32,451 nucleotides of DNA from Thermoanaerobaculia bacterium (lineage in GTDB: Bacteria; Acidobacteriota; Thermoanaerobaculia; UBA5066). Location: assembly GCA_022071945.1 (NCBI GenBank), contig JAJVIN010000021.1, positions 1-32,451 of the forward strand. Reading direction: 5' to 3'. The notes beneath the pieces are model-generated. The model had not been told where the DNA came from and did no database searches. It saw nothing but the letters and a program-made list of their open reading frames with translations. Numbering within the stretch: the stretch's first letter is position 1; every line of letters begins with the position of its first letter. The position numbers and the translations under genes were made by a program. This document shows, piece after piece, positions 2,362-30,529 of this stretch.

Positions 2362-2373
2362 GGCCGGGTGGTG

Positions 2374-4559: not shown

Positions 4560-4563
4560 GGTT

Positions 4564-9259: not shown

Positions 9260-9262
9260 ACG

Positions 9263-9577
9263 TCACTCTCCCCTGGAGACGATCCGGGGAACGACAAAGT
9301 GCCCGTGAGAGAACTCCGGGGCGTTCTTCTGGACCTCGCCGCCCATCTGGCGGCCGACCGGCACGTCTTCGCGATAGGGGGATGGCGGAGCGAGCTCGTC
9401 CGAACCAAGCTCCTCCGCTTCGACCTGCCGAAGGGCTTCGAAATGCTCGACGATCCGCGTCAGCTGCCTGGACATCTGATCCCGCTCATTCTCAGACAGC
9501 TCGAGCGAGGCGAGCCGCGCCACCTTCGAAACGAGCCCGGCATCGATAATCACGCGCGGAGTATAGCCGCCGCCCAT
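9263..9577 (-). CDS. gatC: Glu/Asp-tRNA amidotransferase subunit C
   Basis: 104 aa. 'VSKVARLASLELSENERDQMSRQLTRIVEHFEALRQVE' matches the GatC consensus. Sits immediately upstream of gatA. Confidence 0.85.
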   Translation of the reverse strand: MGGGYTPRVIIDAGLVSKVARLASLELSENERDQMSRQLTRIVEHFEALRQVEAEELGSDELAPPSPYREDVPVGRQMGGEVQKNAPEFSHGHFVVPRIVSRGE

Positions 9578-9649
9578 GACGCCGCCCGCATCGAATTCGC
9601 CCGTGATTTCGAATGACCCGAGAAGACCGAGCTAGAAAAGGCCCACCGG

Positions 9650-10969: not shown

Positions 10970-10998
10970 TTGACCCGCCCGGGTGAGGGTGTTACTTT
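10970..10998 (+). promoter_or_regulatory. Candidate sigma70-type promoter upstream of the pilT-like gene (TTGACC-N17-TACTTT)
   Basis: TTGACC at 10970-10975, a 17-nt spacer, then TACTTT at 10993-10998. It sits ~36 nt upstream of the pilT ATG, and a GGGAGAAGAG ribosome-binding site follows. Confidence 0.3.
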
Positions 10999-11033
10999 GC
11001 CGATTAAGCGCGCAGACAGGGAGAAGAGTGGCG

Positions 11034-12532: not shown

Positions 12533-14383
12533 GTGGGTAGACGACGCTCCCTCTGGCTGGCGCTGGCCGTGGCCGGCGTTCTCCTCGTCACTCTCGCTTT
12601 CGCCAGCTGGCGATGGCTCGATCGCAAGGTCACCCGCCTGGCGTCCCCCGAGTCTCACCGGGAAAAGTCCACCAGGGAGCTCCTGTTCCGCCCGCTCGCC
12701 CGTTCAGAGAAGGGCGCCAGCCTTCTCGGCGATGGCTCCGTCCGAACCCTGGCCAGACTCGGTGACGCGCTCTGGACCGGAGGAGGCAGCGGCCTCGATT
12801 CGGGACTTTCCCCGCTCACGCCGGCCGATGGTCTCGCCTCGCTCCGGGTCGCCTCGATCGCGGTCTTCAAGGAGTCCCTCGTCTACGCCCTGGAAGCGGG
12901 CGGCTGGGGCAGGGTCACCGTAGACGGACCCGAGGAGGCCTCGTCGGGCTTCGGGACCCTTCATGTCCGCCACATGGCGGCCTCTCCCGCCAGCGAGCTC
13001 TACCTGGCCGCGGCGGAGGGTCTTTTCCGCGTCTCGCCCGGCGGTCAGGAAATCGAACGGCTCGATGCGAGCTCCTTTCGCGCCGTCCTCCTGTTGCCCT
13101 CGGGGGGGCTCCTGGCCGGCGGAGAGACGGGCCTCGCGCTCTTTCCCGCCGCCTCCTCCGTCCGGGAGGAAGTACCGGCGCCGGACCCCTGGATCGAGGG
13201 CCTCGCGTTCGACGGAGCGAACGTCTGGGTCTCGACCGCTTCAGGCATCGCGCTCGGGGCCCTGGACGGCAGAAGCATCGTACTGAATCCGCACCCCAAG
13301 GGCTTCGGCCTCAGCTCCGGAGTCCTCTGGAGAGGGCGCTGGATCGCTCCGTCGGGCCCGGGCGAGAGACACCTGACGGCGCTTGCGGCCGGCGGAGACA
13401 GCGCGGAGATCGCGATCCCCGAGCCCTTCCCTCGCGTTCTGGCCTGGGCGGGACAGCTCTTTGGAGATGGCGATTCCGGCCTTCACGTCTACCTGGAAGA
13501 CGGGACCTGGCAGCTCGTGAAAAAGCGGCCGTCGCGTTCCCTCCCCTGGCCGCACGTCAACGCTCTGGCCGTCCGGGAAACGGATGCCTGGCTCGGGTTC
13601 TTCGACGGACCCATCGTCCGTTTTCGCAACCTCGACTCGATCGAAGCTCCCGGGTCCAGGGAACCGTGGGGAGTCAATGCCCTTCTCTCGGCGGGCGGCG
13701 CGGTCTATGCCGCGACCCTCCGTGGCGCGTACCGCATCGCGGGCGGAGCCTTCGAAAAACTGCCAGGAGGCGGCGCCGCGTTCTCCGTGGCAGAGAGCCC
13801 CGAGGGAGTGATCTTCGGCTTCGGCGAGGGAGTCCTGTTCCCGGGGCCCCGTCTCCTTTCGGCTTTCCACGGACTGCCGGGCAACCAGGCCTACGCGCTC
13901 GCGGCCGGCAGCCGTCCCGGAACCCTCTGGGTCGGAACTCCGAGCGGGCTCGGCCGCATCGAGGGGCGCCGGATCACGTTGAGGGTGGCGCGGGGAGAGG
14001 GCCGGCTTCCTCACCCCTGGATCACGGCGCTCGTCGAGGCCGATGAGGGGCTCTGGATCGCGACCTATGGAGGCGGGATTTGCCGGGTCGCGGAATCAGG
14101 CGGCGGACTCGCCTGGACTTCGTTCCCCGAGACGGCGGGCCTCAAGGTCAACCCGGGCGCCCTCGTGCGCACACCCTCTGGAGATGTGATCTTCGGCACG
14201 CAAGGCCAGGGCCTCTGGGGCCTACAGTCCGGGACACAGCAGTTCCAGCGGCTTAGAATTCCCTTGCCGTCCACAAATGTCTTCAGCTTGGCGCTCTACC
14301 CGGCGACCTCTCCGGCCACACTCCTGGCCGGAGCGGACGAGGGCTTGGCGTTTCTCCCGCTCGCTGCGCTCTTCAAACCCTGA
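12533..14383 (+). CDS. Membrane-anchored beta-propeller-like repeat protein (hypothetical)
   Basis: 616 aa with an N-terminal signal anchor 'LWLALAVAGVLLVTLAFASW'. Gly/Trp-rich repeats such as 'GLWIATYGGGICRV', 'GTLWVGTPSGLGRI', 'ANVWVSTASGIALG' resemble Reg_prop/PQQ-type propeller blades. Starts 30 nt after pilT and ends 10 nt before the next gene. Confidence 0.55.
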   Translation: MGRRRSLWLALAVAGVLLVTLAFASWRWLDRKVTRLASPESHREKSTRELLFRPLARSEKGASLLGDGSVRTLARLGDALWTGGGSGLDSGLSPLTPADGLASLRVASIAVFKESLVYALEAGGWGRVTVDGPEEASSGFGTLHVRHMAASPASELYLAAAEGLFRVSPGGQEIERLDASSFRAVLLLPSGGLLAGGETGLALFPAASSVREEVPAPDPWIEGLAFDGANVWVSTASGIALGALDGRSIVLNPHPKGFGLSSGVLWRGRWIAPSGPGERHLTALAAGGDSAEIAIPEPFPRVLAWAGQLFGDGDSGLHVYLEDGTWQLVKKRPSRSLPWPHVNALAVRETDAWLGFFDGPIVRFRNLDSIEAPGSREPWGVNALLSAGGAVYAATLRGAYRIAGGAFEKLPGGGAAFSVAESPEGVIFGFGEGVLFPGPRLLSAFHGLPGNQAYALAAGSRPGTLWVGTPSGLGRIEGRRITLRVARGEGRLPHPWITALVEADEGLWIATYGGGICRVAESGGGLAWTSFPETAGLKVNPGALVRTPSGDVIFGTQGQGLWGLQSGTQQFQRLRIPLPSTNVFSLALYPATSPATLLAGADEGLAFLPLAALFKP

Positions 14384-14393
14384 TGGAGATTCT

Positions 14394-16757
14394 ATGAACC
14401 GGCGTCTCGTGGCGCTCCTCGGCGCAAGCCTGATCGTCCTGGCCTCCCCCCTCCTTGCCCAGTCCGGCCTTCTGGTCCCGGCATCCAGCGGGGTGCCTGA
14501 CCCGAAAGTCCTCTCTCTGAGAGAGATGTCGATCGATGCGGGCATCGCGCGAGGGTTCGTGAGGGTCAACGTGAAGCAGGTCTACGAAAACCACACGGCG
14601 CTGATCCAGGAGGGAATCTGGCGGTTCCAGCTCCCCCCTTCCGGGCTCGTCGGCGACTTCGCGGTCTGGGATGGCCTCGTGAGAATTCCCGGCGTGATCC
14701 TCGAGAAGCGGCGCGCCCGGGCCATCTACAAGGAGTTGACGACGCAGCGGATCGATCCAGGCCTCTTGCAGCAGGGCGAGGAAGAAGACACCGAGCCATC
14801 GGGTTCGGGGCGGCCGGCCGACAGGCCGTCGGGCGGAGCGGGATTTTCCGTCCGCGTCGCCCCGATCCCGGCCTGGGGCACGAAACGTCTGGAGATGCAG
14901 TATCAGTACGAGGTGCCATGGGTCGACGGCTCGGGCGAGTTCCGGCTGGCCATCCGTCCCCGCGAAGGTGACGGGATGGTCGCCGGGACACTCGACGTCA
15001 GGGTGGTTCTCCTCGACGGCGAGTTCCTCCCCTTTTCGAAAAACAGCCTGGAGCTTTCAGTCAAGGGAAACGAGGCCTCTTTCTCGGGCCGGAACGTGAA
15101 GCTCGCGCGGGACGTGATCGTGAGGTTCAAGCCGAAGGTTCCCTCCGGGATGACGTTCTCGGCCTTCCGGAATCCGGCGGGGTCGCTCCCCGACGGTCTC
15201 TCCCTGGCCCCGTGGGAACGCCCCGCCGACGTCCCTCCGGAAAAGGACGGCTTCTTCCTCGTCGAGTACTTCCCATCGAAAGGCGGCTCCACGGTCGCGC
15301 GCGCCCAGGGCAAGGCTCCCGAAGAAAAACGCGACCCGATCTCGGTTGCCATCCTCTTCGACACGTCCCTCTCCCATCGCTGGGCAGGACTGGAATCCGG
15401 ATACAACTTCCTCAGCCGCGTCCTGGATTCCCTCAAGGGCGATGACCGTTTTGCCCTGGTGCCCTTCGATCTCGACCCCGCATCCGGCGTCGCGCTTGCT
15501 CGCCTCTCGCCCGAGAGCCGGAATCAGGCCTTGACCGCGCTTCGCGCCCGCGAGCTCGGGCCGGGCACAGACTTCGCCAAGGCCCTGAAGGCCGCCGCTG
15601 CCCTTCTGGGAAGCTCTCCCAATGCCCGCATCCTGGTGATCACGGACGGGTACGGGCTCGCGAAGAACCTCAAGGATGCGGCCGGAAGGCTGCCGGTGTA
15701 TTCCATTCTGACCGGTGAGGAACGCCGCGAGGCCTTCACGGTGGCGTCCGAGCAGAGCCTTCATCTGGCCTCCGCCAGCGAAGCCGACGAGACCCTCTTC
15801 CTGCGTGAGCTCGTGGCGCCCGCCCGAACAACTCAGAAGGCAACGCCGAAGGCTGTCAGCGCGGAGGTTCCCGTCGTCACATCGGGGGCCGCGAACCCCA
15901 GGGTGAGAGACGTCTACCCCGTCATGAAGCAGCCTCCGGTGCCCGGTTCCCTCTCGGGATGGGTCGGCCGCTACGAGGCGCCGGCGGCCAGCGTCACGGT
16001 TTCCCTCCGGGAGATCCCCGATCAGAAGACCGTCACGAGCTTTCCCGAATCCGCGCTCGAGGCCCGGGATCTCCCGAGGCGCTGGGCCAAGGCACGGGTC
16101 GACCACCTGCTCGCCTTGATCGAGCTCGAGGGGGAAAAGCGGGAGTGGATCGAGGAGATCATCGAGCTCTCCCGCCGGTACAAATTCGTCACCCCCTACA
16201 CGGCATTCCTGGCAGCCCCCCGATCGCTTCTGAGGCCGCGCCGGATCCAGCCCGGAGACCCCGTCATCCGGGTCGAGGCCGAAGAGGGCACGCGAGCCGT
16301 GACAGCCCTGCTTCCGTTCGGAAAAGCCCTCACCCTGACGAGGCGTCCGGGAACGCAGCTGTGGGAAGGCCGGTTCCTTGTCCCCGAGGGGACCAAAGAC
16401 GGTCCCATGTCCGTACGGCTCCTTCTGAGGGACGTATCGGGAAAGACGATCACAGAAACGAAGCGAGTCGTCATCGACGGGACCCCCCCCAGCATCCGTC
16501 CCGACCCTCCCCGCTCGATCTTGCCGGGGCGCCCCGCCGTCGTGGCCGCGCGGGCCGACTCGGATGTCATCTTCCTGTCCGTGAGGCTCGGCTCCGGCCC
16601 CCCGGTTCCCCTCAGGTGGAATCCCGAGACCAAGCGCTCGGAAGCGGAGATTCTCGTCCCGCCCTCGGCCGCCTCCGTGGAAGAGCTCTTCTTCGAGGCT
16701 TCTGACGGGGCCGGGAACCATGGCTTTGCCCGGACGCGGGTGGAGGTGCTGCAGTGA
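14394..16757 (+). CDS. Secreted VIT (vault/inter-alpha-trypsin) + von Willebrand factor A domain protein
   Basis: Signal peptide 'MNRRLVALLGASLIVLASPLLAQS', with a GGAG ribosome-binding site 6 nt upstream of the ATG at 14394. VIT-like N-domain ('VKQVYENHTALIQEGIWRFQLPPSGLVGDFAVWDGLVRIPGVILEKRRARAIYKEL'). vWA domain with MIDAS motif 'ILFDTSLSH'. The ITIH-like C-terminal motif 'KFVTPYTAFLA' is present. The ORF is open from 14277. Confidence 0.8.
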   Translation: MNRRLVALLGASLIVLASPLLAQSGLLVPASSGVPDPKVLSLREMSIDAGIARGFVRVNVKQVYENHTALIQEGIWRFQLPPSGLVGDFAVWDGLVRIPGVILEKRRARAIYKELTTQRIDPGLLQQGEEEDTEPSGSGRPADRPSGGAGFSVRVAPIPAWGTKRLEMQYQYEVPWVDGSGEFRLAIRPREGDGMVAGTLDVRVVLLDGEFLPFSKNSLELSVKGNEASFSGRNVKLARDVIVRFKPKVPSGMTFSAFRNPAGSLPDGLSLAPWERPADVPPEKDGFFLVEYFPSKGGSTVARAQGKAPEEKRDPISVAILFDTSLSHRWAGLESGYNFLSRVLDSLKGDDRFALVPFDLDPASGVALARLSPESRNQALTALRARELGPGTDFAKALKAAAALLGSSPNARILVITDGYGLAKNLKDAAGRLPVYSILTGEERREAFTVASEQSLHLASASEADETLFLRELVAPARTTQKATPKAVSAEVPVVTSGAANPRVRDVYPVMKQPPVPGSLSGWVGRYEAPAASVTVSLREIPDQKTVTSFPESALEARDLPRRWAKARVDHLLALIELEGEKREWIEEIIELSRRYKFVTPYTAFLAAPRSLLRPRRIQPGDPVIRVEAEEGTRAVTALLPFGKALTLTRRPGTQLWEGRFLVPEGTKDGPMSVRLLLRDVSGKTITETKRVVIDGTPPSIRPDPPRSILPGRPAVVAARADSDVIFLSVRLGSGPPVPLRWNPETKRSEAEILVPPSAASVEELFFEASDGAGNHGFARTRVEVLQ

Positions 16758-19700
16758 AAGCGACTCGAGGACGGCGGCGATTCCCGCGGCGTCGAATCCT
16801 GGCCCTTTTGCCCGCGAGTCTCTCGCTGCTGGCGCTGGGCGCCCTCGCGAGCGCCGGGTCCTACATCCCTTTCGAGGACCTCACGGACAAGGACGGCCTG
16901 GCGGCGGTCCTGAGGCGGACCGCCAGAATCGAGGGGCGGATCGTCTACTACCCTGCACCTCCGGCCGAGGCTGAGCCCGAGCTCTCGCGGCGGTCGGCCG
17001 CAGCGGACGCGGAGGCCCAGGCGGCCACCCGGCACCTCGCCGCGACACGGCGGGAGCTGGGCAACCTCAAGGGAGCCCAAGAAGCCATGACCCGGTGGGC
17101 CACGGCAAGCGCCAGCGAAGCTGCTGAAAGGTGGGCGGAGACGGCCCGATGGGCGCGTTCTTACCGGCTCTTCCCGTTCGCCTTCGAAGCGGCCGAGAAG
17201 GCCTTGCAGGCTCCGGCGGGGGCCGGAAGCGAGGCTGGCAGAAAGAAGCTCGCGAGTGACAGGATCGACTGGGCGCAAGCCTTCCCCGAGCACGCGAGCG
17301 CGGAGAAGCTCGTCGAGGCCCGCGCGAAGCTCTTCCCGGAAGATCAGGCCTTTTTCAACGCGTGGATCCAGTCCCTCGAGAAGTCGAACCGGATCAAGGA
17401 CGCCGAGGAGGCGCTCAGGAAGAACACCAGCCTCTCGGAAGAGAACCGGGCCGTCCTGGTGGCGCGTCTGAAGAAGAAGTCAGGCGACGGCACGGGAGCC
17501 CTGTCTGTCCTGGAGACCTTCATCAGCCGGTCGGGCCGGGCCCCACAGCAGGCCACATCCACCCTGTTTTCCGAGGTCGTTCTGGCCACCGCGCCGTCCA
17601 GAGTGGACGAGTGGCGGGCCACCCTGGACAAGAAGTTCGACGCGACCGCCCTCCTGTTGCTCGAGGTCTTTTTCAAGGGCAAGGGGCGTGGAGACCTGGC
17701 GCTTCAGCTCCTTCAGCAGTCCGATGCCCGGCACCTGGGCAGCGTCGACCGCAAGGGAGCGATGCTCCTCGCCCAGCTCTACGAGGGTCTCAACGCCGTT
17801 CCCGAGGCGTTCCGGACGCGTCTGGCGTCATCGAGAAACGCGAACGAGAAAGAGAAGCTCGACGATCTTGCGGCCCTCGCTTCCCTTGCGCTGAAGGCCG
17901 GTTCGCGTCCCCTCGCCTGGGGTCAGTTCAACGAGGAACCCTACCGGTGGGCGGCCCGGATCGACGTGACCCCCGGCTTCTTCACGGGGGGCCTCTCGCT
18001 CCTCTTGACGGGATTCGACGGAAAGGCCTCTCTTTCCGAGCTCGAGAATCAGCGGCTGCCCGACAGGACCTTCCGGACGGCCCAGGCCCTCATCGCGGAG
18101 CTCGAGAAGAGGTCTCCCACACACCCGAGCCTGCCGGCGCTCGCCCTTGGCACGATGGAAAAGCTCGTCCAGCGCAGCGAGGGTTCCAAGGCGCTCGAAC
18201 TTCTGCCCAAGGCGGACAAAGGTACGGCGGAAATCAGGGCTGCCGCGCGCAAGGTCGCTCTCCTGGCGATCCGCCAGACGAAAGCGCCCCTGGATCGCGA
18301 AGCCGCTCTGTGGAAGGAGCGGCTCGCGCTTCTTGCACCTGACGGATCGAAGGTCACCTTCCAGGCCTACCGGAGCGCCCGCTCCGAGGAGGACGAGAAC
18401 GACGAGGCGGACCCGCCAGGAGCACCCGCGGAGTCCAGGGGAATGGCTTCTCCCGAGTACCAGTGGGTCTTGCAGGAGGCGCTCTCGCGGCTCTCGAGCC
18501 GGGACAAGTCGAACGCGGCCTCTCTCGCTCTCCTCCTCAACGAGATGGACCGGCTGCCGAAAGCCGAGCCCCTCTGGACGTACGCCTGCAACGAGATCGA
18601 GCGCTGGACCCTCGACTCCACGCTCGAGAGCCGTTACAAGCACGCCCTGAAGACGTTCGAGGGAACCGAGTGGTGGAAGCGCGTCTTCCGCTGGTACGTC
18701 CGTCAGAAGCGGGGGGCCGAGCAGCGCGCGCTCGCCGACGAGGTCGTGGCGACGTTTCGGACGAGCGAGATCTTCCGGCGGGATCCAGGATTCCAGGGAG
18801 CCATTTCACTCGAAGGCCAGCCGAATCCCTTCATCACGATCAGCGACTACATCCGGCTGAAGGCACTCGAGCGATTCCCGGCCTCGCCACAGGTCCTCAG
18901 GGAGGCCGAGTCGCGCCTGATCTCCCGCTCCATCTACCAGGGGCTCTCGACGAGTGACCGGGCGGCGCGTCAGGGCTACGGGGTCGTGGAAGACGCGCTC
19001 CTCGAACTGCGCCGGGATGCCGTGCTCTTCATCGAGCCCGCGAGGCGCGCCGCGTTTCTCGACCGCCTGATGAAGGAGAACCGGCTCGAAGCCTTCCTGA
19101 AGGCTCTGGAGGCGAGCCCCGAGAAGACTCCCGTGGAGCTTCGGTTCCTGTCGGATGGCTGGAGCCGGCTCTCGAAGTTCGAACTGGCGGCGGGCTACGC
19201 CCTGAAGCTCTCGGAGCTCTACCCGGCCGCCCCGGACGCGGCCTCGGATGCCATCACGCTCCACCGCTCGATCTCGGGACTCTCCCCCGCCATGGCGGAG
19301 AAAGTCCTGCCGATGGTGAGACGGCTGGCCGCGACAGGCGCCGACACCACCGCCCTGTGGACGAACGCGGGCGAGATGTGGCAGGACCTCGACCAGCCCG
19401 GACGCGCCTCGGAGGCTTTCGAAAGGATCCTCGAACCAGGACCCAGGGAGCCGTCCCGGATCCTCGACCTCGCCACGGTCTACTGGGACTACGGCCGGAT
19501 GGACGAGGCCGAAAGGGTGCTCCGGGACGGGAGAAAGCGCATCTCGGAGCCCAGCCTGCACGCCTTCGAGGCCGGAGTGCTGCGCGAAGAGAAAAAGGAC
19601 ATCGACGGCGCCTTGACCGAGTACCTCGCCGCCCTGGACGGCGAGGGAGAGGCATCGGAAGAGAGCAGCTGGGACCCTCACGACTACCGCGCCCTCCGCC

Positions 19701-22700
19701 GCCTCACCCAGCTTCTGGGCCGGCAGCGGGTTCTGGTCGAGCTCGAGAAGCGAGTTCGAAATCTGAAGCCCGGTGTGGCCGAGGACGAGAAGCGCTTGCT
19801 GCCGCTGCTCTATCTGCTCAACTCCGAGCCGGAGACCGTGGAGGACTCCTGGGACGACTGGATCGACATGCCGAATGACCCTGTCGGGCGGGAACAGAGG
19901 GCGCAGAAGCGCGAGAAGGCGACGCCCGCGCAGGAACGCGGCATGACCCAGATCGGTGCGCTTCTTTCCCAGAAGACCCTCGAGATGATTCCCTTGGCCA
20001 CGAACCGCGCTTTCCTGGCGTCCTTGCGTGGATTCCAGACCCAGCTCCTCGACCCGAGGTGGACGAAGGACCCGTTGGCGTCCTCGCGCCTGCAGAGCCT
20101 CCTTCTGGAAAGGGAAGCCGCCCTCATGCCGACGGAGGAAGAGCGGATCCAGAAAGAGCTCGCCCGGATCGCGTTCTTCATCGATCACAACCAGCAGCAG
20201 GAGGCACGCCAGGCGCTCACTCGCCTCGACGCCCGCGTGAACTCGCTCTCGGAGGGCGGCCTGAAGATCAGGAGCCAGGCAAGCCTGGCCCAGATGACCG
20301 AGCGGCTCGGTGGCGATGCCGCCACCGCCTTCCGCTCGTTGACGGACCGGTACCCCTGGTCCCTCGGCGTCATTGAAGACCGGATCGCCTTCTGCTACCG
20401 GAACAAACGGACCTCCGAGGCCCTCGACGTGCTCGAGAAGGCCGCCGTCTCGGCCGCCTCCGGACACAAGGAGAAGCTCTCGGAAAGGCTCGTGCGGGAA
20501 TCGCTCGAGAATGGCGACCTGCCGCGAGCCAAGAAGGCCCTCACGGCGCTTCTCGGCATGAACCTGGACCCGGCCTTGAGGGTGTCGGCGGTCGGCCTGA
20601 TGGGACGCCTGTCGCTTCGCGAGAACCCCTCGTTTGACGCCATTACCTTCGCCAAGACCGAAGCCGCGAAGCTGCCGGAAGAGGTCCGGCCCGATCTGTG
20701 GGCCGCCGTCGCCCGGGGCGCGCGCCAGGAAGGCCGGGGCAAGGCCAGCGTCGACCTCTGGATCGAGGCCATCAACCGTCGGACGCTTCGTGAGTGGCTG
20801 GTGGAAGCGAGCCAGACGGCTACCCAGTTCCAGCTCGAGGCAATCCTCTCGAAGTTCTTCGAGAGCCAGAGAGTGAGGAGCCCGCGCGACGTGAGGTGGG
20901 CCGTCGCCGTCCGCGAGCTGCGAACCCAGGCCGGCGATCTCGCCGGGGCCATCCAGGCCGCGAAGGAGGTTTGCGGGATCGCTCCCGAGAAGGAGATCTA
21001 CTGGAGGGACGCGGTCGACCTCTTCTCGCGCGCCGGCCAGTTCGTCGAGGCGGCGACCTTCCTCGAGGGCTGGGCGTCGAGCCGCAAGGGCGACGAGCGC
21101 ACCGCCTCGTGGCGGGCCGATCTGCTGCTTCGAGGCGGACAAACCCAGAAAGCCATGGAGGTCGAGCGTGCCGCGCTCGAGGCGTGGAAGAAGGAGAGCA
21201 GCCAGAGCCAGAACACCGGGGACGTCGAGTCCGAGCTCGCGGAGCGGACGGCCCGGGTCGCGCGCCGGTTCCTCGAAAGGAACCGCCCCTCGGCAGCCTG
21301 GGCCTTCGCGGTCCCGGGAGGAAAGCTCTCGCGCTCGGCGGAGATTCCGCTGGACCACACATTCAGGACCGACGTGGCCGTCCGCACCGGCAACCTTCTC
21401 GCCCTATTGAAGGCCAACGAGAACGACAGCGATTTCCTCGAGCAGAGCGCCGAGACCATCTCTCAATCGGCCCGAGGCGAGGATCTCGCGGCTCTGCAGG
21501 AATACCTCCTGTCAAAGGTGTTCCCACAGACCGGACCTCCGAGCGACGCGGCCCTGAAGAAGTTCGACCAGTTCGCGCGGAGTTGCGGCCTCTACCGGTG
21601 GGACGAGGCGCTGGCCCGCAATCTGGCGGCCCGGACGCCCGGTCCATGGGGCACGAACCCGCCCGTGGGATTCCTCAGGCGGATCTCTCCGACAGTCAGC
21701 AATCCCACCCGCCTGGCCAAGCCAAACCTCGAGTACCTGTGGGTTCAGCACCTGATCGCCTCAGACGATGTCCCGGCGCTCCGGCAGGCGATCGCACCGC
21801 GCCTGTCCGCGCTCGATTCCTTCGTTTCGACGGGTACGTCCGCCGCTCCGGCGGCTACGTCGCTCTTCCCCGTCGAGGCGCTCGTCAGGATCGCTCAGGC
21901 GCCCGACGGCGCACCAGCTGGGGCTGGAGCGCCAGCTGGGGCTGGCGCGCCCGCTTCGGCAGGCGCGGAGACCCGGGCGATGCTCTCGCGCTGGTTCAAG
22001 ACAAAGGAAACCTATCAGCGTCTTGCCCAGGCCGTCGGTTCGAGGTGGGATCTGACTTCCCTTCTCAAGCTGACGGACGAGGAGACGGTGACGGCGTGGC
22101 TTCTGCACGCCGCTCCCGGCCGCAAAAGCCTCGACCCCGTCGACGAGAAGCGCTGGAGGGTCGAGGTCGACACGGCCCGCGCCCTTGCCTCCCTCATCGA
22201 GGGCAAGGCGGGCGCGCTCCAGAGTCCAGAGATCGCGAGGCTGAGAGGCCCGAGAACGGTCGGAGACGTCATGACGACCGACCCGAAATGGGTCTGGCCG
22301 GACTTTCAGCCTCGCCCCACCGACCACGCGGATGAAGCCATCTACGGCGCCGGTGTGGACCGCGGCCGCACACCCGGCCGCCTCTGGGGAGGCCGGCCCG
22401 GCGATGCCTGGTACGTCCTCGAGTCGCTCGCGCGATACCGGGAGAAGGACCCGAAGGCCCCTTATGTCCCCCTCGAGGCCGCGGCCCGGGGGAACGAAGC
22501 CGATCGAACGCTCCTCGGAGTCCGGACCTCGGAAGGGCTCCAGAACCTTTCCCTCGCCTTGGCTCTCGACGAGGCGTACTTCGCCGACCTCTCCCGCGCC
22601 GACCGGCTCGAGCGCCGGATGCGGCTCCTCATCGCCAACGGCGGGGAGGGCAAGGCAAAGGCGGAAGAACTGCTCAAGAAGGAAGTCGTCAGGCTGCAAG

Positions 22701-24457
22701 GAACGGCAAGTGAGACCCTCTTCCGTCAGTGGGAAGGAGCCTCCGCTCGCCTTTCGCTCTCGGCTCCGGGAGACTTCCTCGATCCGGCAAAGCCGGTTTC
22801 CGCCCCGCTCCTCGCCTACCTTCTGGACGTCTCCGACCTCAAAAAGTACTCCAACCTCAAACCGGCGAATCACGCGGATCTCAAGACCGCTTTGGCGAAT
22901 CGCTGGTACGGCGCCCAGAGCCTGATGTCTCGTGAGGAGCTCGACTACTACCTCAGGGAGCTGTGGGCAACGGGCAGCGGGACGTTCCCGGCCCGGGCGG
23001 TGAAAAACATCCAGAAGATGTGGCCGGAGGCCATCGAGTACCTCTCGGGCGTGCCGGCCCTGCACAGGCAGGCGGCTCTCTCGGCCGTGAAATCTCTTCC
23101 CGATCCGAAACCCGTCGCTTCCGTCGTCGATCAGTCGGGAGACCGGCGCGAGACGGCCCAGCTCCTCCTTTTCCGCGCCGAGCTCGCGTCCTCGCAGGTG
23201 GAGGCGGCAATGGCTCGCGCGCGGCTCATGACGGGCGATACCGAGGCCGCCGCCCTGACTCTTGCGCCCGCTGTTCTCTCCTCGGAAGCATCGGAGGAGC
23301 ACGCCGAGGCCGGGGAAGAAGGCGGCGGCGAACCGGCGGACTCCGAGACGGAATCGGCTTCTTCTCGCCTCAGGCGGCTCCTGACAATCGCCAGAGCGGT
23401 GAAGAACCCGGCCGGAATCCAGGAAACCGAGGCCTACCTTCGCGACCTCGTGAAGAAGCGCCTCGAGAATCGGGTCCTGGCCTCTGGAGATGCATGGATC
23501 CTGGCAGTCGACCTGGCAACGCCCGCGACGATTCGGTCCACCTCGGAGGCCCTGGAGAGAGCCTGGATTCGGGGCGAGTACTTCTCGTTCGCCGACAAGG
23601 CCGGGCTCGTCGGGGCCCTATTCCCCAAGGATCCCGCCGCCGCGCGGACGTGGTTCACGCGAATGGAACGGGCCTCCGACCTAGCGACCATGCGAAAACG
23701 CTCGGAGCTCCTCGTGACGCTCGGGCGCCCGGAGGATGCCGCACGCGAGTGGATCGAGACGCGGACGACGCTTCGGCAGAGTCCACAGATCGACCTGCAG
23801 TCGTTCGACGCCTGGCGACGCCTTCCGGCCGCAAAGGCAGGCACCTCCGCTCCGGCCGCCCCCGATGCCTGGCAAAAGGCCGCGGCATTCTGGAAGAAAC
23901 CGGCTGCGGAGCTGGACCCCGCATGGGGCGAGTCCTTTGCGGCACACCTGGCCAAGTCGCCCTACGACAGGCTCGCCGCGCGAAACGTCCTGCGGAGCCT
24001 GGCCCCGGCACGGGCCGATTACGTGGAACCGGCCGTTGCGGCCCTGAACTCGTCCGAAGACGTGGCGGCCTGGCGAATCGCCCGGTCCGTCCGCCCTCGC
24101 TCCGCCGTCGCGGCCCGCAACGCCCTGCCGTCTCAAACTGTCGACGTGAACTCGTTGAGGACGCGCCGGTTCCTCAAGACCGAGATCGAGGGGCTGCTTT
24201 CCGACCTCGCACGGATCGGGGCAGCCAATGAGCTCGACGGTCTCGTCTCGAAGGCCACCGCGGGTCTCGACGTCATCAAGCCCGGAGCGTCCAGGGCCTT
24301 GCAGCCCGAGCTCACGGCCCTCAAACAGTCCCTGACGGTGTCGCGCGGGGCGGCCTCGCAGGCGTTCCTCAGGGGCGGCCAGTATCTCCCGATCCGTCCA
24401 CGCGACCTCGACTGGGCCCTCTACGCACGGGTCCTCAACCAGGAGAAGGTGCCGTGA
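16754..24457 (+). CDS. Giant (2567 aa) secreted alpha-helical repeat protein of unknown function
   Basis: Single uninterrupted 7.7-kb ORF with GC3-rich codon usage. GTG start overlaps the upstream stop (GTGA). Signal peptide 'RILALLPASLSLLALGALASAGS'. Composition is Ala/Leu/Arg/Glu-rich throughout, which suggests TPR/HEAT-like helical repeats. No catalytic motif was recognised. Contains an internal APAGAG mini-repeat. Confidence 0.8.
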   Translation: MKATRGRRRFPRRRILALLPASLSLLALGALASAGSYIPFEDLTDKDGLAAVLRRTARIEGRIVYYPAPPAEAEPELSRRSAAADAEAQAATRHLAATRRELGNLKGAQEAMTRWATASASEAAERWAETARWARSYRLFPFAFEAAEKALQAPAGAGSEAGRKKLASDRIDWAQAFPEHASAEKLVEARAKLFPEDQAFFNAWIQSLEKSNRIKDAEEALRKNTSLSEENRAVLVARLKKKSGDGTGALSVLETFISRSGRAPQQATSTLFSEVVLATAPSRVDEWRATLDKKFDATALLLLEVFFKGKGRGDLALQLLQQSDARHLGSVDRKGAMLLAQLYEGLNAVPEAFRTRLASSRNANEKEKLDDLAALASLALKAGSRPLAWGQFNEEPYRWAARIDVTPGFFTGGLSLLLTGFDGKASLSELENQRLPDRTFRTAQALIAELEKRSPTHPSLPALALGTMEKLVQRSEGSKALELLPKADKGTAEIRAAARKVALLAIRQTKAPLDREAALWKERLALLAPDGSKVTFQAYRSARSEEDENDEADPPGAPAESRGMASPEYQWVLQEALSRLSSRDKSNAASLALLLNEMDRLPKAEPLWTYACNEIERWTLDSTLESRYKHALKTFEGTEWWKRVFRWYVRQKRGAEQRALADEVVATFRTSEIFRRDPGFQGAISLEGQPNPFITISDYIRLKALERFPASPQVLREAESRLISRSIYQGLSTSDRAARQGYGVVEDALLELRRDAVLFIEPARRAAFLDRLMKENRLEAFLKALEASPEKTPVELRFLSDGWSRLSKFELAAGYALKLSELYPAAPDAASDAITLHRSISGLSPAMAEKVLPMVRRLAATGADTTALWTNAGEMWQDLDQPGRASEAFERILEPGPREPSRILDLATVYWDYGRMDEAERVLRDGRKRISEPSLHAFEAGVLREEKKDIDGALTEYLAALDGEGEASEESSWDPHDYRALRRLTQLLGRQRVLVELEKRVRNLKPGVAEDEKRLLPLLYLLNSEPETVEDSWDDWIDMPNDPVGREQRAQKREKATPAQERGMTQIGALLSQKTLEMIPLATNRAFLASLRGFQTQLLDPRWTKDPLASSRLQSLLLEREAALMPTEEERIQKELARIAFFIDHNQQQEARQALTRLDARVNSLSEGGLKIRSQASLAQMTERLGGDAATAFRSLTDRYPWSLGVIEDRIAFCYRNKRTSEALDVLEKAAVSAASGHKEKLSERLVRESLENGDLPRAKKALTALLGMNLDPALRVSAVGLMGRLSLRENPSFDAITFAKTEAAKLPEEVRPDLWAAVARGARQEGRGKASVDLWIEAINRRTLREWLVEASQTATQFQLEAILSKFFESQRVRSPRDVRWAVAVRELRTQAGDLAGAIQAAKEVCGIAPEKEIYWRDAVDLFSRAGQFVEAATFLEGWASSRKGDERTASWRADLLLRGGQTQKAMEVERAALEAWKKESSQSQNTGDVESELAERTARVARRFLERNRPSAAWAFAVPGGKLSRSAEIPLDHTFRTDVAVRTGNLLALLKANENDSDFLEQSAETISQSARGEDLAALQEYLLSKVFPQTGPPSDAALKKFDQFARSCGLYRWDEALARNLAARTPGPWGTNPPVGFLRRISPTVSNPTRLAKPNLEYLWVQHLIASDDVPALRQAIAPRLSALDSFVSTGTSAAPAATSLFPVEALVRIAQAPDGAPAGAGAPAGAGAPASAGAETRAMLSRWFKTKETYQRLAQAVGSRWDLTSLLKLTDEETVTAWLLHAAPGRKSLDPVDEKRWRVEVDTARALASLIEGKAGALQSPEIARLRGPRTVGDVMTTDPKWVWPDFQPRPTDHADEAIYGAGVDRGRTPGRLWGGRPGDAWYVLESLARYREKDPKAPYVPLEAAARGNEADRTLLGVRTSEGLQNLSLALALDEAYFADLSRADRLERRMRLLIANGGEGKAKAEELLKKEVVRLQGTASETLFRQWEGASARLSLSAPGDFLDPAKPVSAPLLAYLLDVSDLKKYSNLKPANHADLKTALANRWYGAQSLMSREELDYYLRELWATGSGTFPARAVKNIQKMWPEAIEYLSGVPALHRQAALSAVKSLPDPKPVASVVDQSGDRRETAQLLLFRAELASSQVEAAMARARLMTGDTEAAALTLAPAVLSSEASEEHAEAGEEGGGEPADSETESASSRLRRLLTIARAVKNPAGIQETEAYLRDLVKKRLENRVLASGDAWILAVDLATPATIRSTSEALERAWIRGEYFSFADKAGLVGALFPKDPAAARTWFTRMERASDLATMRKRSELLVTLGRPEDAAREWIETRTTLRQSPQIDLQSFDAWRRLPAAKAGTSAPAAPDAWQKAAAFWKKPAAELDPAWGESFAAHLAKSPYDRLAARNVLRSLAPARADYVEPAVAALNSSEDVAAWRIARSVRPRSAVAARNALPSQTVDVNSLRTRRFLKTEIEGLLSDLARIGAANELDGLVSKATAGLDVIKPGASRALQPELTALKQSLTVSRGAASQAFLRGGQYLPIRPRDLDWALYARVLNQEKVP
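21911..21958 (+). repeat. Short in-frame tandem repeat (about 2.5 copies of an 18-bp unit 'gcgccagctggggctgga'), which encodes APAGAGAPAGAGAP inside the giant ORF
   Basis: Direct read of 21901-21960. Confidence 0.5.
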
Positions 24458-26082
24458 TGAAGAACATCGTTCTGGCCTTCTCGGCCGTCGTCATCTTCGC
24501 CGCTCCCTCGTCCGCTCGGGCCGTCGAGCCGGCCGCGGCGCCGGCGGCCGCCCTCGGCAAGCTCCCTCTGCCAGACGGTCCGGTGGTCTTCCTCGTCGAG
24601 GACGTGCCGGCCTTCGAGAAGGCCCTCTCTGGAGGCATCAGAAAGGCCGTCACGGGGAAACTCCCCGAAAGCGATCCCGTCGGAGCCGCCTGGCGACGCA
24701 CACGGGTCGGGAGCAAGCTCGACTCTCAGTGGCAGCTCTTCGCCAGTGACATTCCGCTGACCTGGTCGCAGATCTCGGCGCTTAAGCCCTCGGCCTTCGG
24801 GATGACCCTGCTGGCCGCGGGGGATCTCGAGGCCGTCCTTGTGGTCCGGACAGCGCTGGCTCAATTGCCGGTGCCGCTCCCGAATGGGACTCAGAAGACC
24901 TACAAGGGGTACGCCTACCAGCTCGTCACTCGAGGAGCCGGCGACGACAGGAACCTCGAACGCCGGATGGGACTCGCCTGGTGCCGCGCGGGCCGCCACC
25001 TCTTCCTGGCGACGAGCGAGAGATCGCTTCTCGCCGCCCTCGATGTTCAAGCCGGACAGGGCGGGTTCTCTTCGATGGTGGGCGGGTTCGCCCAGCTGCG
25101 CCTGAACCTCGATGCCCTCAGGAAGGACCTCTACTTCAAGAGGGAGTTTCTCTTCGACGAGGGAACGCAGGGGCCCGCGACAGGGATTCTCCTGGCCGGC
25201 CTGGAACTCGAGGGAAACCGCCTCGTCGAGGTGCGAAAAGGCACGGGAGAGGGCCGGGCGCCGGGAGCCACGTGGCCCGTCGCTCAGCGAAACGTCCGGG
25301 CGGCCGGGTGGGAGCCAGACGGCAAGAGACTCTGGAGCGCGTTCTGGCGCGCCGTTCTCGATCCGGTGCCCAATCCCTCGGACAGGCCCGTCGCCGCCGT
25401 GAAGGTCTTGCCGTCATTCTCGGAGGCCGCGGAGAGCCGGTACCTCGTCGATCTGAGGCAGCCGGTGTCTGCCGGCACGGACGCTGGCGGCGAGGGCGAG
25501 ATCCCCGCGTGGAAAGACCTCATCAAGACCGCGGCCCCCGATGGCTTTGGCTGGGAGGTGACCCGGGACGGATACCCGAGATTCGCCCTGCGCCAGCCGC
25601 CAGCCTTCGACAAGGGATTCGTGGACCTTTCGATCAAAACGCTCTCGCGCCGCTCGGGCATGACGCCGAAAGATGACGGCGGAACCTTGAGGGTCGGACC
25701 CGGTCTCGCTGGACTCGCCTACAAAAGGAAGGGCGGGTTCCTTTGGGTTGGCCTGCGGGGAGAGGACTTGACGGATTGCCCGGAGCCCTCCGGGACGCCG
25801 GACCTCGTCCGGTGGGGATACCTGAATCTCTCCGACGCCTCCCTCGAGCGAGAGGCCTGGCGCCGGGCGGAAGGGGCTTTCTCACCGGAGTACACGCGTC
25901 CCTTCTCTGACAGGATCCTCGGCCTCCTGGGCTGGGCTCCCTCGCTCGAGACCATTTCTTCTGAACGAAAGCGCTCTGGCGACACGTTCACGGAACGTGT
26001 GACGTTCACGTTCTCGGAGACGGCTGGGGCGAAAAAGCCCTCGTCTCCTCCGGCACCCGCCCCCGCGGCCCCGAAGAAGTAG
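24454..26082 (+). CDS. Secreted hypothetical protein (542 aa), translationally coupled to the giant ORF
   Basis: Start (GTG 24454 or ATG 24457) overlaps the giant ORF's stop (gtgATGA). Signal peptide 'MKNIVLAFSAVVIFAAPSSARA'. Pro/Ala/Lys C-terminal tail. No recognised motif. Confidence 0.65.
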   Translation: MMKNIVLAFSAVVIFAAPSSARAVEPAAAPAAALGKLPLPDGPVVFLVEDVPAFEKALSGGIRKAVTGKLPESDPVGAAWRRTRVGSKLDSQWQLFASDIPLTWSQISALKPSAFGMTLLAAGDLEAVLVVRTALAQLPVPLPNGTQKTYKGYAYQLVTRGAGDDRNLERRMGLAWCRAGRHLFLATSERSLLAALDVQAGQGGFSSMVGGFAQLRLNLDALRKDLYFKREFLFDEGTQGPATGILLAGLELEGNRLVEVRKGTGEGRAPGATWPVAQRNVRAAGWEPDGKRLWSAFWRAVLDPVPNPSDRPVAAVKVLPSFSEAAESRYLVDLRQPVSAGTDAGGEGEIPAWKDLIKTAAPDGFGWEVTRDGYPRFALRQPPAFDKGFVDLSIKTLSRRSGMTPKDDGGTLRVGPGLAGLAYKRKGGFLWVGLRGEDLTDCPEPSGTPDLVRWGYLNLSDASLEREAWRRAEGAFSPEYTRPFSDRILGLLGWAPSLETISSERKRSGDTFTERVTFTFSETAGAKKPSSPPAPAPAAPKK

Positions 26083-26084
26083 GT

Positions 26085-27833
26085 GTGATCCGGGGCGCAC
26101 CCTGGGTTCTGGCGGCGCTGCTCCTTCTGGGCAGCGCCCCGGAGGAGGGTCCGGACCGCTGGCAGGTCTGGACTCTGGTGAACGGGACCCTGTCGCCCGG
26201 ATCGCAGACTCCGTCCGCGCCGCGACCCGTGGGCTCGCTCCAGAAACCGTGGGTGCTCAAGGCCTGGGCGGCGGAACACGCCGGCGAGAAGTCGCCGGAA
26301 TATTTCTGCTCCGGAGCTCCCGCGTGCTGGCGAGCGGGCGGTCACGGCTGGCTGGGACTCAGGAGGGCGATTGCCGAGTCGTGCAATGCGTACTTCATCC
26401 GGCTCGCGCGATCGACCTCCGGGGGAGGCCTCGTCTCGGCCTTCACCGAGGCGGGGTTCCTTTTGGAGGGGATTCCAGGTCCCGAGGCCGCGATCGGCCT
26501 TCAGGCACCGAGTGGCGTGATTCGAATCTCTCCTCCGGAGCTCCTGCGCGCCTTCCGACAGCTGATCCGGGAGCCGTGGACGTCGGGAGAGACCCACCGG
26601 CTCGAGCTTCTACGGGGGCTCGAGGAGGCGGGCCGCTCGGGCACCGCTTCGAGTCCGGGACTCCGCGGACTCCTCGTCAAGACCGGCACGGTGAGCCGGG
26701 GCGGAAACGTCCTGGAGGATCTGACCGGGTGGGTCCTCGCGGCGACCCCCGATGGAGAGGAGCTCGCGCTCGGCAAGCTCGAGAAAGCCACAGGACGTCT
26801 CGCCGCCCTCGAGCTCGGGCAGCGGGCCGTGCTGAAGCCACTCGCGCCGCAGGGCAACGAGACCCCTGCTGACCCGGCCGAGAACGTGGCGGTCTGGGTG
26901 TTTTCCGCACTGGCGCCGGAAGAGGTCCATGCCACGAATCTCTCCACGGCTCCCGTTCTGGCCGAGGGGGCGTCCGGCCCGCGGTGGCTGGGCCAGGGAG
27001 GCACGACCTCGATCGAGCCAGGGGACAATCTTGCCGGGGCGGACTGGGAGCTCACCGTTCAGCCGTACGGACTGAAGCGGCGTTTCAAGGGGAGCCTGGA
27101 AATGCTGAGAGGGCGAGGCGCCGAACCGGGGCGGCTGGTGCTTCGGACTCCCGTCCGGAGCTACGTAGAGGGCGTCATCAGGGCGGAGCTCTCGAGTGGA
27201 AGCATCCAGCGGCAGAGAGACCTTGCCGCGGCGATTCTCCGGTTTCTCAGGCGCGGGGATCGGCACCCCCCGGCGTCGGTCTGCGACCGAAATCACTGCG
27301 CCTGGTTCCTCGGCGAGGGCCCGGAGGTCCTCTGGAAAGACCCGCGCCGGCCCGTCCATCAGGAGAGCCGGGCGGAACCTCTCAGGATCGATGACGAGAC
27401 CTTCCGTTCGATCATCGCCAGGTCGAAAACGGCTGGTCCGAGTCTCTGGACGGATCACTGCGGGGGGCGGGCCCTTTCCGAGTGGGAAGTCTGGGGCCGG
27501 GGCTCCCGGCAGACGTGGCCCTGTCCCAGGCACCGCTCGCCCACGAAATCCTGGTCCCGCCCGTTCCCTTCCGAGGCACTTGCGGAGCTTCTCGGCGGGC
27601 CTGTTCGGGATCTGAGGTGCTCGGTCACGTCGGGCTACCGCCGAACGGTCATCGAGCTCGAATCGGGCCGGCGGCTCGAGCTGTCGTTCGACGAGCTCCA
27701 CCGCAGGCTTGCATCACGATTTGGCTGGGGCTCGCTTCCCTCTCCGCCGGAGCGGGCGTCGAGGAAGGGCGACACGTGGGTGCTGTCCGGACACGGCGCG
27801 GGTCATCGGGTCGGGCTCTGCCTCTCCGATTGA
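26085..27833 (+). CDS. Secreted fusion protein: N-terminal class D beta-lactamase/PBP-like penicillin-binding domain plus C-terminal SpoIID/LytB (lytic transglycosylase / amidase-enhancer) domain
   Basis: Signal peptide 'MIRGAPWVLAALLLLGSAPE'. Active-site triad with class-D-like spacing: S51-L-Q-K54 (SxxK), S99-C-N (SxN), K199-T-G (KTG). The OXA/BlaR-like segment 'IRISPPELLRAFRQLI' is present. SpoIID hallmarks follow: 'SYVEGVIRAEL', 'VCDRNHCAWFLG', 'LWTDHCGGRALSEWEVWG', 'GHGAGHRVGLC'. Starts 3 nt after the previous stop. Confidence 0.8.
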   Translation: MIRGAPWVLAALLLLGSAPEEGPDRWQVWTLVNGTLSPGSQTPSAPRPVGSLQKPWVLKAWAAEHAGEKSPEYFCSGAPACWRAGGHGWLGLRRAIAESCNAYFIRLARSTSGGGLVSAFTEAGFLLEGIPGPEAAIGLQAPSGVIRISPPELLRAFRQLIREPWTSGETHRLELLRGLEEAGRSGTASSPGLRGLLVKTGTVSRGGNVLEDLTGWVLAATPDGEELALGKLEKATGRLAALELGQRAVLKPLAPQGNETPADPAENVAVWVFSALAPEEVHATNLSTAPVLAEGASGPRWLGQGGTTSIEPGDNLAGADWELTVQPYGLKRRFKGSLEMLRGRGAEPGRLVLRTPVRSYVEGVIRAELSSGSIQRQRDLAAAILRFLRRGDRHPPASVCDRNHCAWFLGEGPEVLWKDPRRPVHQESRAEPLRIDDETFRSIIARSKTAGPSLWTDHCGGRALSEWEVWGRGSRQTWPCPRHRSPTKSWSRPFPSEALAELLGGPVRDLRCSVTSGYRRTVIELESGRRLELSFDELHRRLASRFGWGSLPSPPERASRKGDTWVLSGHGAGHRVGLCLSD

Positions 27834-29784: not shown

Positions 29785-29801
29785 CGCTGCTCGAGCCGCA
29801 T

Positions 29802-30419: not shown

Positions 30420-30475
30420 GGCGGGATCCCCCCGCGAGGGGTCGAGGAAAGCGGGCGTGTTCCATGATCGCCCCC

Positions 30476-30504
30476 ATACTAGGCGCAAGGAAGGCGTATA
30501 TCAA
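30476..30504 (-). promoter_or_regulatory. lexA promoter: TTGATA-N17-TAGTAT (minus strand)
   Basis: The minus strand reads '...TTGATAtacgccttccttgcgccTAGTATgggggcgatcatggaacacg...'. The -35 is at 30504-30499 and the -10 at 30481-30476. This leaves a ~50-nt leader before the lexA ATG. Confidence 0.45.
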
Positions 30505-30529
30505 GCGGAATTTCGCCGCGAACTCACCG

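Follow-up and report, generated by a model that had tools for sequence, protein, structure and literature searches.

A giant exported protein, predicted to form a TPR-type alpha-solenoid, in a conserved five-gene cassette of Acidobacteriota

The stretch of DNA analysed here in its entirety, hereafter the window, comprises 32,451 nucleotides (contig JAJVIN010000021.1 of a Thermoanaerobaculia bacterium, ~ 67% G+C overall) and encodes on its forward strand a giant exported protein of 2567 amino acids (aa) and 283 kDa (16754..24457), predicted to fold as an all-alpha solenoid of the tetratricopeptide repeat (TPR) type. The main new result of our analysis is the context of this gene, which is the third member of a strictly syntenic, translationally coupled cassette for five exported proteins. 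It is preceded by genes for a beta-propeller protein (gene 1, 12533..14383, 616 aa) and a protein with VIT and von Willebrand factor A (vWA) domains (gene 2, 14394..16757, 787 aa), and followed by genes for an orphan protein (gene 4, 24454..26082, 542 aa) and for a protein combining a penicillin-binding protein (PBP)-like part with a SpoIID-like part (gene 5, 26085..27833, 582 aa), all on the forward strand. The giant protein may serve as a scaffold for a periplasmic complex formed with these partners.

A five-gene cassette conserved across Acidobacteriota

Conservation of the neighbourhood was assessed by tblastn of every protein of the window against 81 related loci, with cassette genes counted over loci with enough flank. 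Gene 2 was recovered in 59/59 such loci, gene 4 in 57/57, gene 1 in 56/57 and gene 5 in 49/52, and order and strand were constant wherever the five genes were found. Neighbouring cassette genes in the window either share 4 nt or lie no more than 10 nt apart, and the junctions of the giant gene also overlap by 4 nt in two other loci that were read. In each of the five proteins, the only hydrophobic segment is an N-terminal signal or anchor. The remaining neighbours in the window (PilT-like ATPase, CCA-adding enzyme, amidases, ABC-2/GldG-like transporter, M61 peptidase and LexA) were present in at most 10 of the 81 loci and were rejected as members of the module. Clustering of all flanking open reading frames (ORFs) revealed no family in more than 10 of 43 loci and no further conserved member, and the cassette is therefore self-contained.

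Among 5.8 billion clustered proteins, 98 essentially full-length homologues of the giant protein were found (2510–2600 residues, 34–52% identity), with named sources in Thermoanaerobaculia, Holophagaceae, Geothrix, Vicinamibacteria and the isolate Mesoterricola silvestris; the same search also returned a few relatives of similar length at 25% identity. Two family motifs, one of them SPRDVRWAVAVR, recovered 103 species from GTDB (one genome per species), and every record naming a lineage was acidobacterial. A profile of the distant relatives added at least 1309 further clusters of 2400–2650 residues, those with names (Acidisarcina, Acidobacteriaceae) belonging to the class Terriglobia. A HMMER search with residues 36–1235 over 1.84 billion representatives returned only 294 proteins at E ≤ 1e-10. 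The longest of the listed matches measured 2200–2700 residues and aligned N-terminus to N-terminus, and the shorter ones are read as contig fragments. Across lineages at 25–50% identity, the length of the protein is kept within a few per cent.

The distant giants of Terriglobia (25% identity, 2,200–2,700 aa) sit in the same cassette. The gene order in an Acidisarcina locus (L086) and in L082 is propeller, VIT-vWA, giant, gene 4, a transpeptidase-like gene (263–276 aa) and a SpoIID gene (348 aa); loci L085 and L087 have genes 1 to 4 in place with no wall enzyme adjacent. Profiles of the partners matched the distant cassettes at 1e-171 for the VIT-vWA protein, 1e-44 for the propeller, 3e-40 for the transpeptidase-like protein and 7e-16 for the SpoIID-like protein. 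Both the giant family and its cassette span at least four classes of Acidobacteriota. Two apparent fusions of the VIT-vWA and giant genes were discarded, one (L079, ~ 9870–10000) because of a run of 100 N and the other (L066, 7655–10858) as a probable frameshift in a long-read metagenome-assembled genome.

Public annotations of the giant homologues are for the most part uninformative. Several carry automatic names such as ‘cellulose synthase operon protein C’, ‘predicted Zn-dependent protease’, ‘PilF’ or ‘TadD’ (P0245, P0248, P0260, P0280, P0256 and others), while the remainder are labelled ‘hypothetical protein’ or given generic TPR-type names. Names of the former kind all go back to a generic resemblance to TPR and mislead as to function. 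A full-text literature search found no paper on the giant family or the cassette; one article on ‘giant proteins’ was set aside as unrelated, since it concerns fused PBP-SEDS enzymes.

The giant gene and its product

A first-pass annotation, made from the letters of the window, had described an uninterrupted 7.7-kb ORF of 2567 aa with a signal peptide, coupled to its neighbours by GTGA upstream and ATGA downstream. Both the ORF and its upstream junction hold as described: the frame translates without internal stop from a GTG start at 16754, which overlaps the TGA stop of gene 2 at 16755–57 (GTGA), and a Shine-Dalgarno sequence (GGAGG, 16742–46) lies 7 nt 5′ of the start. Downstream, the coupling stands but the ‘ATGA’ does not. 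The giant gene ends in TGA at 24455–57, and gene 4 starts either with GTG at 24454 (a 4-nt GTGA overlap, also found at this junction in homologous loci) or with ATG at 24457 (TGATG). G+C content at third codon positions (GC3) was 0.84 versus 0.51 at second positions (GC2), which is a coding signature, and by our own estimate from base composition the chance of an open frame of 2567 codons in DNA of 67% G+C is ~ 1e-26.

An independent assembly (P0001) encodes the same giant protein; the two versions differ by 14 substitutions and by one indel of 6 aa, which falls in an Ala/Gly linker. With the frame intact in both, the ORF is not split by a frameshift or an assembly error, a possibility that had been raised with the original description. 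The indel corresponds to one unit of an 18-bp tandem repeat, detected by TRF at 21908..21967, which is absent once from P0001 and encodes an Ala/Gly/Pro linker of low modelling confidence (APAGAG, aa ~ 1719–1738); no other repeats were found in the giant gene at the DNA level. Together with the homologues, these observations confirm that the ORF is a genuine gene. An 850-aa ORF on the opposite strand within it (18806–21358; GC3 0.68, GC1 0.87) is a high-GC shadow frame and not a gene. Scans for promoters, terminators and Rfam families yielded nothing informative.

Export of the giant protein is indicated by a Sec-type signal peptide, as first annotated, at aa 1–34 (16754..16855), with a hydrophobic segment at aa 14–35 and A-S-A at positions 32–34 followed by G. 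Directly after it, the mature protein begins with the pattern (V/I)PWEDLTExDW, which is common to 32 homologues. No lipobox was seen at the N-terminus. The composition is indeed rich in A, L, R and E (15.4, 12.3, 9.7 and 8.3%, respectively).

No catalytic function could be recognised in the giant protein, in agreement with the earlier description. A motif scan revealed no HExxH, GxSxG, Walker A, CxxC or LPxTG, and chance SxxK strings were not conserved; likewise, no embedded enzyme fold was found. Nor did any relationship to alpha-2-macroglobulin emerge, which had been named as a homology that would refute the earlier description: the structure models are all-alpha, neither CGEQ nor any other C[GLS]E[QN] thioester string occurs, only four cysteines are present (none of them invariant) and a phmmer search of the PDB returned no chain matching the sequence. 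PADLOC contained no model matching the protein.

Repeat detection by sequence gave hints of TPR below curated cut-offs. No Pfam or NCBIfam model reached its cut-off; TPR_19 scored 20.4 bits at residues 881–935 (cut-off 25), and a PilW TPR model of NCBIfam also matched at a sub-threshold level. Some giant homologues do pass a Pfam TPR cut-off (TPR_11 in P0307, 28.3 versus 26.8). A family profile of 32 sequences gave weak matches in the PDB to designed or consensus TPR proteins at ~ 840–960 and 1386–1500, the former segment (19271..19633) being the most TPR-like of the protein by sequence.

AlphaFold models were obtained for residues 36–1235 and 1368–2567 from an alignment of 57 sequences, covering 2,400 of the 2,567 residues. 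The N-terminal model (pLDDT 85.8, pTM 0.75) contains 65 helices with a mean length of 13 residues (71% helix, 1.8% strand), and the C-terminal one (pLDDT 90.4, pTM 0.84) contains 68, giving ~ 133 helices together and almost no strand. Strand is confined to short beta-hairpins or bridges at aa 54–67, 683–695 and 2537–2546, those nearest the two termini possibly pairing with each other, and linkers of low confidence were seen at 392–418, 539–566, 651–667, ~ 1707–1737 and 2163–2198. The modelled chain consists of stacked helix-turn-helix repeats, as in TPR-type alpha-solenoids, a class defined by a continuous solenoid of units of ~ 34 residues, and the solenoid array proposed in the first-pass annotation is thereby borne out at the level of prediction. 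According to these models, the giant protein is a TPR-type alpha-solenoid of roughly 70 diverged TPR-like hairpins. The best Foldseek matches were long eukaryotic TPR scaffolds at TM-scores of only 0.1–0.2 and an identity of ~ 10%, so that the resemblance lies in the type of repeat and not in overall architecture; the models thus describe TPR-like repeats in an architecture without a solved counterpart.

Comparison by hhalign of all pairs of 150-aa profile windows of the giant protein gave a best E-value of 3e-4 over 63 columns. Judged from its sequence, the protein appears to contain no regular or recently amplified repeat, and its hairpins seem ancient and individually specialised, not copies in a consensus array.

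Several conserved elements stand out within the solenoid. A Gly-rich hydrophobic loop at aa 392–418 (DVTPGFFTGGLSLLLTG; 17927..18007) was poorly modelled in the monomer (pLDDT < 50) and has eight positions at least 90% conserved across both cassette types (Y397, D404, P407, G408, G412, L414, S415 and L418); it is a candidate partner-binding or membrane-binding element. The family signature SPRDVRWAVAVR at aa 1376–1387 (20879..20914) is invariant in the close-family alignment, and its counterpart in the distant branch reads SPRDxRWxIVLARV. An irregular, non-repeat insert at aa ~ 1828–1896 (GxGxDxGRxPGxLWGxRPGEAWY; 22235..22441) carries near-invariant Gly, Trp, Arg and Pro in the close family, of which G1875, W1878 and G1883 are kept in the distant branch too, and was modelled with high pLDDT as mostly coil and short helices. 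Residues invariant across classes cluster in the region 300–1500, and the last ~ 1000 residues diverge.

The partner proteins and neighbouring genes

Gene 2 is the best conserved member of the cassette, with a mean column identity of 61%. Its frame is open from 14277, and translation likely starts at ATG 14394, just before the signal peptide. The Pfam VIT model scored 49.6 bits (cut-off 26.5, 5.1e-13), and VWA_2 and VWA also passed. The gene 2 profile aligned to human ITIH4 (9c4f), one of the inter-alpha-trypsin-inhibitor heavy chains (ITIH), across both domains, VIT and vWA, and as far as the FVTPxT motif (FVTPLTSMV) with an E-value of 4e-15. A string of the MIDAS type (for metal-ion-dependent adhesion site), DTSLS, is present at aa 323–327, and DTSLS or DNSLS was found in 7/9 of the orthologues checked, the exceptions being L082, whose sequence ends ahead of the vWA domain, and L001 (Mesoterricola silvestris), where no exact copy occurs. 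With VIT, a vWA domain bearing MIDAS and a downstream FVTPxT region all in place, profile alignment identifies gene 2 as a true homologue of the inter-alpha-inhibitor heavy chains. A homologue search with gene 2 returned near relatives only, every match naming an organism being acidobacterial and none coming from a model organism.

Conservation across the cassette as a whole peaks in gene 2 and not in the giant protein. The stretch in question covers 33 residues of the FVTPxT region (aa 596–628; 16179..16277), reads YKF(V/I)TPYT..PRxLLRPRxI(Q/R)PGDPV(L/I)RV, includes Asp622-Pro623 and adjoins a C-terminal domain of ~ 165 residues. Almost all of its positions are the same in 26/26 orthologues, and it recurs in all Terriglobia-type cassettes. 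In animal heavy chains, the pro-domain is cut at a conserved Asp-Pro, and the Asp-Pro that precedes the C-terminal domain of gene 2 recalls, by analogy, this processing and glycan-ester site. The C-terminal pro-domains of animal heavy chains are removed as the new C-terminus becomes ester-linked to glycosaminoglycan (PMC7170535). The same work describes heavy chain HC1 as integrin-beta-like in structure, with a MIDAS through which it binds protein in a cation-dependent manner (PMC7170535).

Gene 5 comprises a PBP2-type transpeptidase-like core (aa ~ 40–260) and a SpoIID-like domain (aa ~ 330–582). The core displays the SxxK, SxN and KTG motifs of penicillin-binding acyl-serine transferases, with S51..K54 and S99-C-N101 invariant and K199-T-G at least 90% conserved. 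The gene 5 profile matched PBP2/MrdA in the PDB at 4e-8, and SpoIID (4rwr) weakly at 0.07. The SpoIID-like domain conserves E368, C400, H404 and C405 (a Glu and a C..HC cluster), which may correspond to the SpoIID catalytic residues. The enzyme is fused in the window and the close family (Holophagales/Holophagaceae, Thermoanaerobaculia and Vicinamibacteria) and is encoded by two adjacent genes, transpeptidase-like then SpoIID, in Terriglobia-type cassettes (L082, 9506–11343; L086, 19373–21246). Both split proteins match the profile of the fused one, the transpeptidase-like orthologues at 3e-40 and the SpoIID orthologues, which carry Pfam SpoIID, at 7e-16.

Gene 1 encodes a propeller of the Reg_prop type (Pfam, 29.8 bits versus a cut-off of 20.4) with a single hydrophobic segment, an N-terminal membrane anchor or signal at aa 4–29. 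The profile of 29 orthologues matched the propellers of Bacteroides hybrid two-component sensors (4a2l, 1.7e-19; 3v9f, 1.2e-17), and a Pfam scan over the 616 aa detected no kinase, receiver or DNA-binding module. Gene 4, whose family measures ~ 520 aa, had no match in Pfam, NCBIfam or the PDB. Its homology with gene 4 of the Terriglobia-type cassettes extends over the full length (hhalign probability 95%, E-value 2.5e-8 over 460 columns).

Directly 5′ of the cassette lies a gene for a PilT/T2SSE-type ATPase (10983–12503, forward strand) with a C-terminal extension of ~ 130 residues, which has much coiled-coil and low-complexity sequence and finishes in an Ala/Pro-rich tail. It is conserved in ~ 10 close relatives only and has a weak PADLOC match (mad8, 5e-9) through its P-loop. 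On the reverse strand, a four-gene ABC-2 set (892–5568) encodes an ABC ATPase, an ABC-2 permease, an ABC_transp_aux protein similar to GldG and a protein of the DUF4340 family. The set looks like the GldA/F/G transporters associated with gliding, and in other genomes it is unlinked to the cassette. Also on the reverse strand, a 770-aa ORF for an Amidase_3 (N-acetylmuramoyl-L-alanine amidase) and the preceding amidase-signature gene (5738–8050 and 7780–9408) overlap by 271 nt, so the true start of the Amidase_3 gene is probably further downstream. An ORF antisense to the amidase gene (8729–9616, forward strand) is probably spurious. Convergent with the cassette on its 3′ side (27856–32197, reverse strand) are genes for a PDZ-containing M61 glycyl aminopeptidase, the repressor LexA and a TPR protein that has a single membrane segment; they were found in only two to four related loci.

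A scaffold role, its rivals and known systems

The explanation that we favour, with a probability of roughly one half, is that the giant protein acts as a non-catalytic periplasmic scaffold of a peptidoglycan-associated complex. The argument for a platform is that a 283-kDa repeat protein without an enzyme domain is coupled to four exported partners and conserves its length over deep divergence. The long repeat surface would dock the four partners into a stoichiometric periplasmic complex, which the propeller would anchor in the inner membrane. The vWA MIDAS could act as a cation-dependent clamp on an acidic residue of a partner, acidic linkers of the solenoid being candidates, and both the loop at 392–418 and the insert at 1828–1896 are likely-looking docking elements. 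Other large envelope machines need local opening of peptidoglycan for their installation, and gene 5 might open and re-seal the wall locally so that a very large assembly can be installed; alternatively, wall remodelling may be the purpose of the complex itself. The first-pass annotation had suggested a scaffold role in this module, an interpretation that our analysis supports; the role itself, like physical complex formation, a periplasmic rather than surface location and peptidoglycan as the purpose of the complex, is one that we infer.

A number of points weigh against this explanation, chief among them that gene 5 is not always adjacent. As the wall enzyme is non-adjacent in L085 and L087, the invariant core may be four genes and the link to the wall accessory. 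The case for complex formation is drawn from operon structure, as is that for the giant protein as a TPR adaptor of the wall enzyme from conserved operon linkage. The overall shape may be an extended superhelix, compact or ring-like; a signal peptide is also compatible with onward transport to the cell surface; and gene 4, which has no detectable relatives, could hold the real activity.

An apparatus for surface adhesion or motility, with propeller and vWA domain as an integrin-like head and the solenoid as connector, comparable to the Agl-Glt system of Myxococcus with its vWA adhesins and large TPR proteins, is unlikely, although it fares best among the alternatives. The pairing of a beta-propeller with a VIT-vWA protein bearing a MIDAS string does resemble an integrin head (HC1 being integrin-like, PMC7170535), vWA adhesins (CglB and CglD) are reported in the gliding literature, and the window itself contains the PilT-like ATPase (10983–12503) and the GldG/ABC-2-like transporter (892–5568). 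These motility-like neighbours, however, lie outside the cassette and occur in at most 10 of the 81 loci, no gene for an outer-membrane barrel, secretin, motor or secretion system belongs to the cassette, and the propeller belongs with the Reg_prop sensors.

The latter property could point instead to a periplasmic sensing device, in which the propeller detects glycans derived from the wall or the environment and the solenoid and vWA protein are co-receptors or adaptors. Despite the match to the hybrid two-component sensor domains of Bacteroides at 1e-19, we consider this improbable: gene 1 shares the periplasmic propeller with such sensors but has only an N-terminal anchor in place of their cytoplasmic signalling modules, so that the domain is common and the system is not. 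Moreover, no regulator gene is conserved beside the cassette, and an adaptor of 283 kDa is hard to justify for signalling. We give the same low standing to a scaffold for exopolysaccharide export of the BcsC, PelB, AlgK or PgaA kind, where the TPR array would guide a nascent exopolysaccharide through the periplasm and the propeller would bind it. The name ‘cellulose synthase operon protein C’ notwithstanding, the giant models have no C-terminal beta-barrel, there is no synthase operon, and no synthase or glycosyltransferase occurs in the cassette or recurs in its flanks.

A more speculative possibility, and slightly less probable still, is that the cassette is a bacterial counterpart of the heavy-chain/glycosaminoglycan system. 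By analogy, gene 2 would be cut at Asp622-Pro623 and its new C-terminal Asp esterified to peptidoglycan, with gene 5 opening and re-sealing the wall, the solenoid as assembly platform and the propeller as membrane anchor. If true, this would constitute a hitherto unknown covalent linkage of protein to cell wall, possibly a defining envelope structure of Acidobacteriota.

A protease trap and repair system like alpha-2-macroglobulin/PBP1c of Proteobacteria, in which gene 2 and the giant protein neutralise invading enzymes while the PBP-like protein repairs the wall, is very improbable. It would account for a PBP-like gene being associated with an exported protein of very large size, as in the YfhM-PbpC pair, where the two are genetically linked, and for the membership of gene 2 in the inter-alpha-trypsin-inhibitor heavy-chain family; yet ITIH heavy chains are not themselves protease inhibitors, no PADLOC or other defence signal was seen, and the giant protein is an all-alpha solenoid without the macroglobulin beta-sandwich domains and thioester of YfhM. 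An artefact, either a chance open frame or an assembly chimera, is refuted: high-GC genomes do yield many long spurious ORFs (70 of at least 150 aa in the window), but the GC3 of 0.84, the Shine-Dalgarno sequence, the 98 full-length homologues at 34–52% identity, the same frame in an independent assembly and the confident structure models all speak for a real gene.

Acidobacteriota, whose cell biology has hardly been explored, belong to the most abundant bacteria in soil. Few genes in these genomes are as large as the giant gene, and a cassette with its own wall-modifying enzyme offers a testable entry to a possibly lineage-specific feature of the acidobacterial envelope. The analysis also places the ITIH/integrin-beta-like architecture of animal extracellular matrix in a tightly conserved bacterial context, and corrects a systematic misannotation (‘cellulose synthase operon protein C’, ‘Zn-dependent protease’, ‘PilF/TadD’).

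Among known systems, ITIH1-4 share with gene 2, and not with the giant protein, the VIT domain, the vWA domain with MIDAS and the region up to FVTPxT. They are animal extracellular-matrix proteins carried on glycosaminoglycans, whereas gene 2 is bacterial, probably periplasmic and in an operon with a giant solenoid. Class B PBPs resemble gene 5 in the catalytic domain alone: its core begins ~ 40 residues after the signal peptide without membrane anchor or pedestal, and no SEDS gene is part of the cassette. The proteobacterial TPR adaptors of peptidoglycan enzymes, NlpI, the N-domain of LpoA and CpoB/YbgF, are proteins of 100–700 residues with few repeats, several of them lipoproteins. The giant protein differs in its 2567 aa, its lack of a lipobox and the absence of a detectable sequence relation, and those systems have no propeller, ITIH-like or orphan partners. 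The best structural matches, TTC21B/IFT139 (IFT-A), SKI3/TTC37, Ctr9, TFIIIC tau131 and Naa15, use tens of TPR hairpins as platforms for multi-subunit complexes, but are cytoplasmic or nuclear and reach at most about half the length of the giant protein. Small TPR adaptors of wall enzymes and long eukaryotic TPR scaffolds are thus the closest in working principle, although the giant protein belongs to none of those families, and the cassette would represent an envelope complex, scaffolded by TPR, whose size and set of partners are without precedent.

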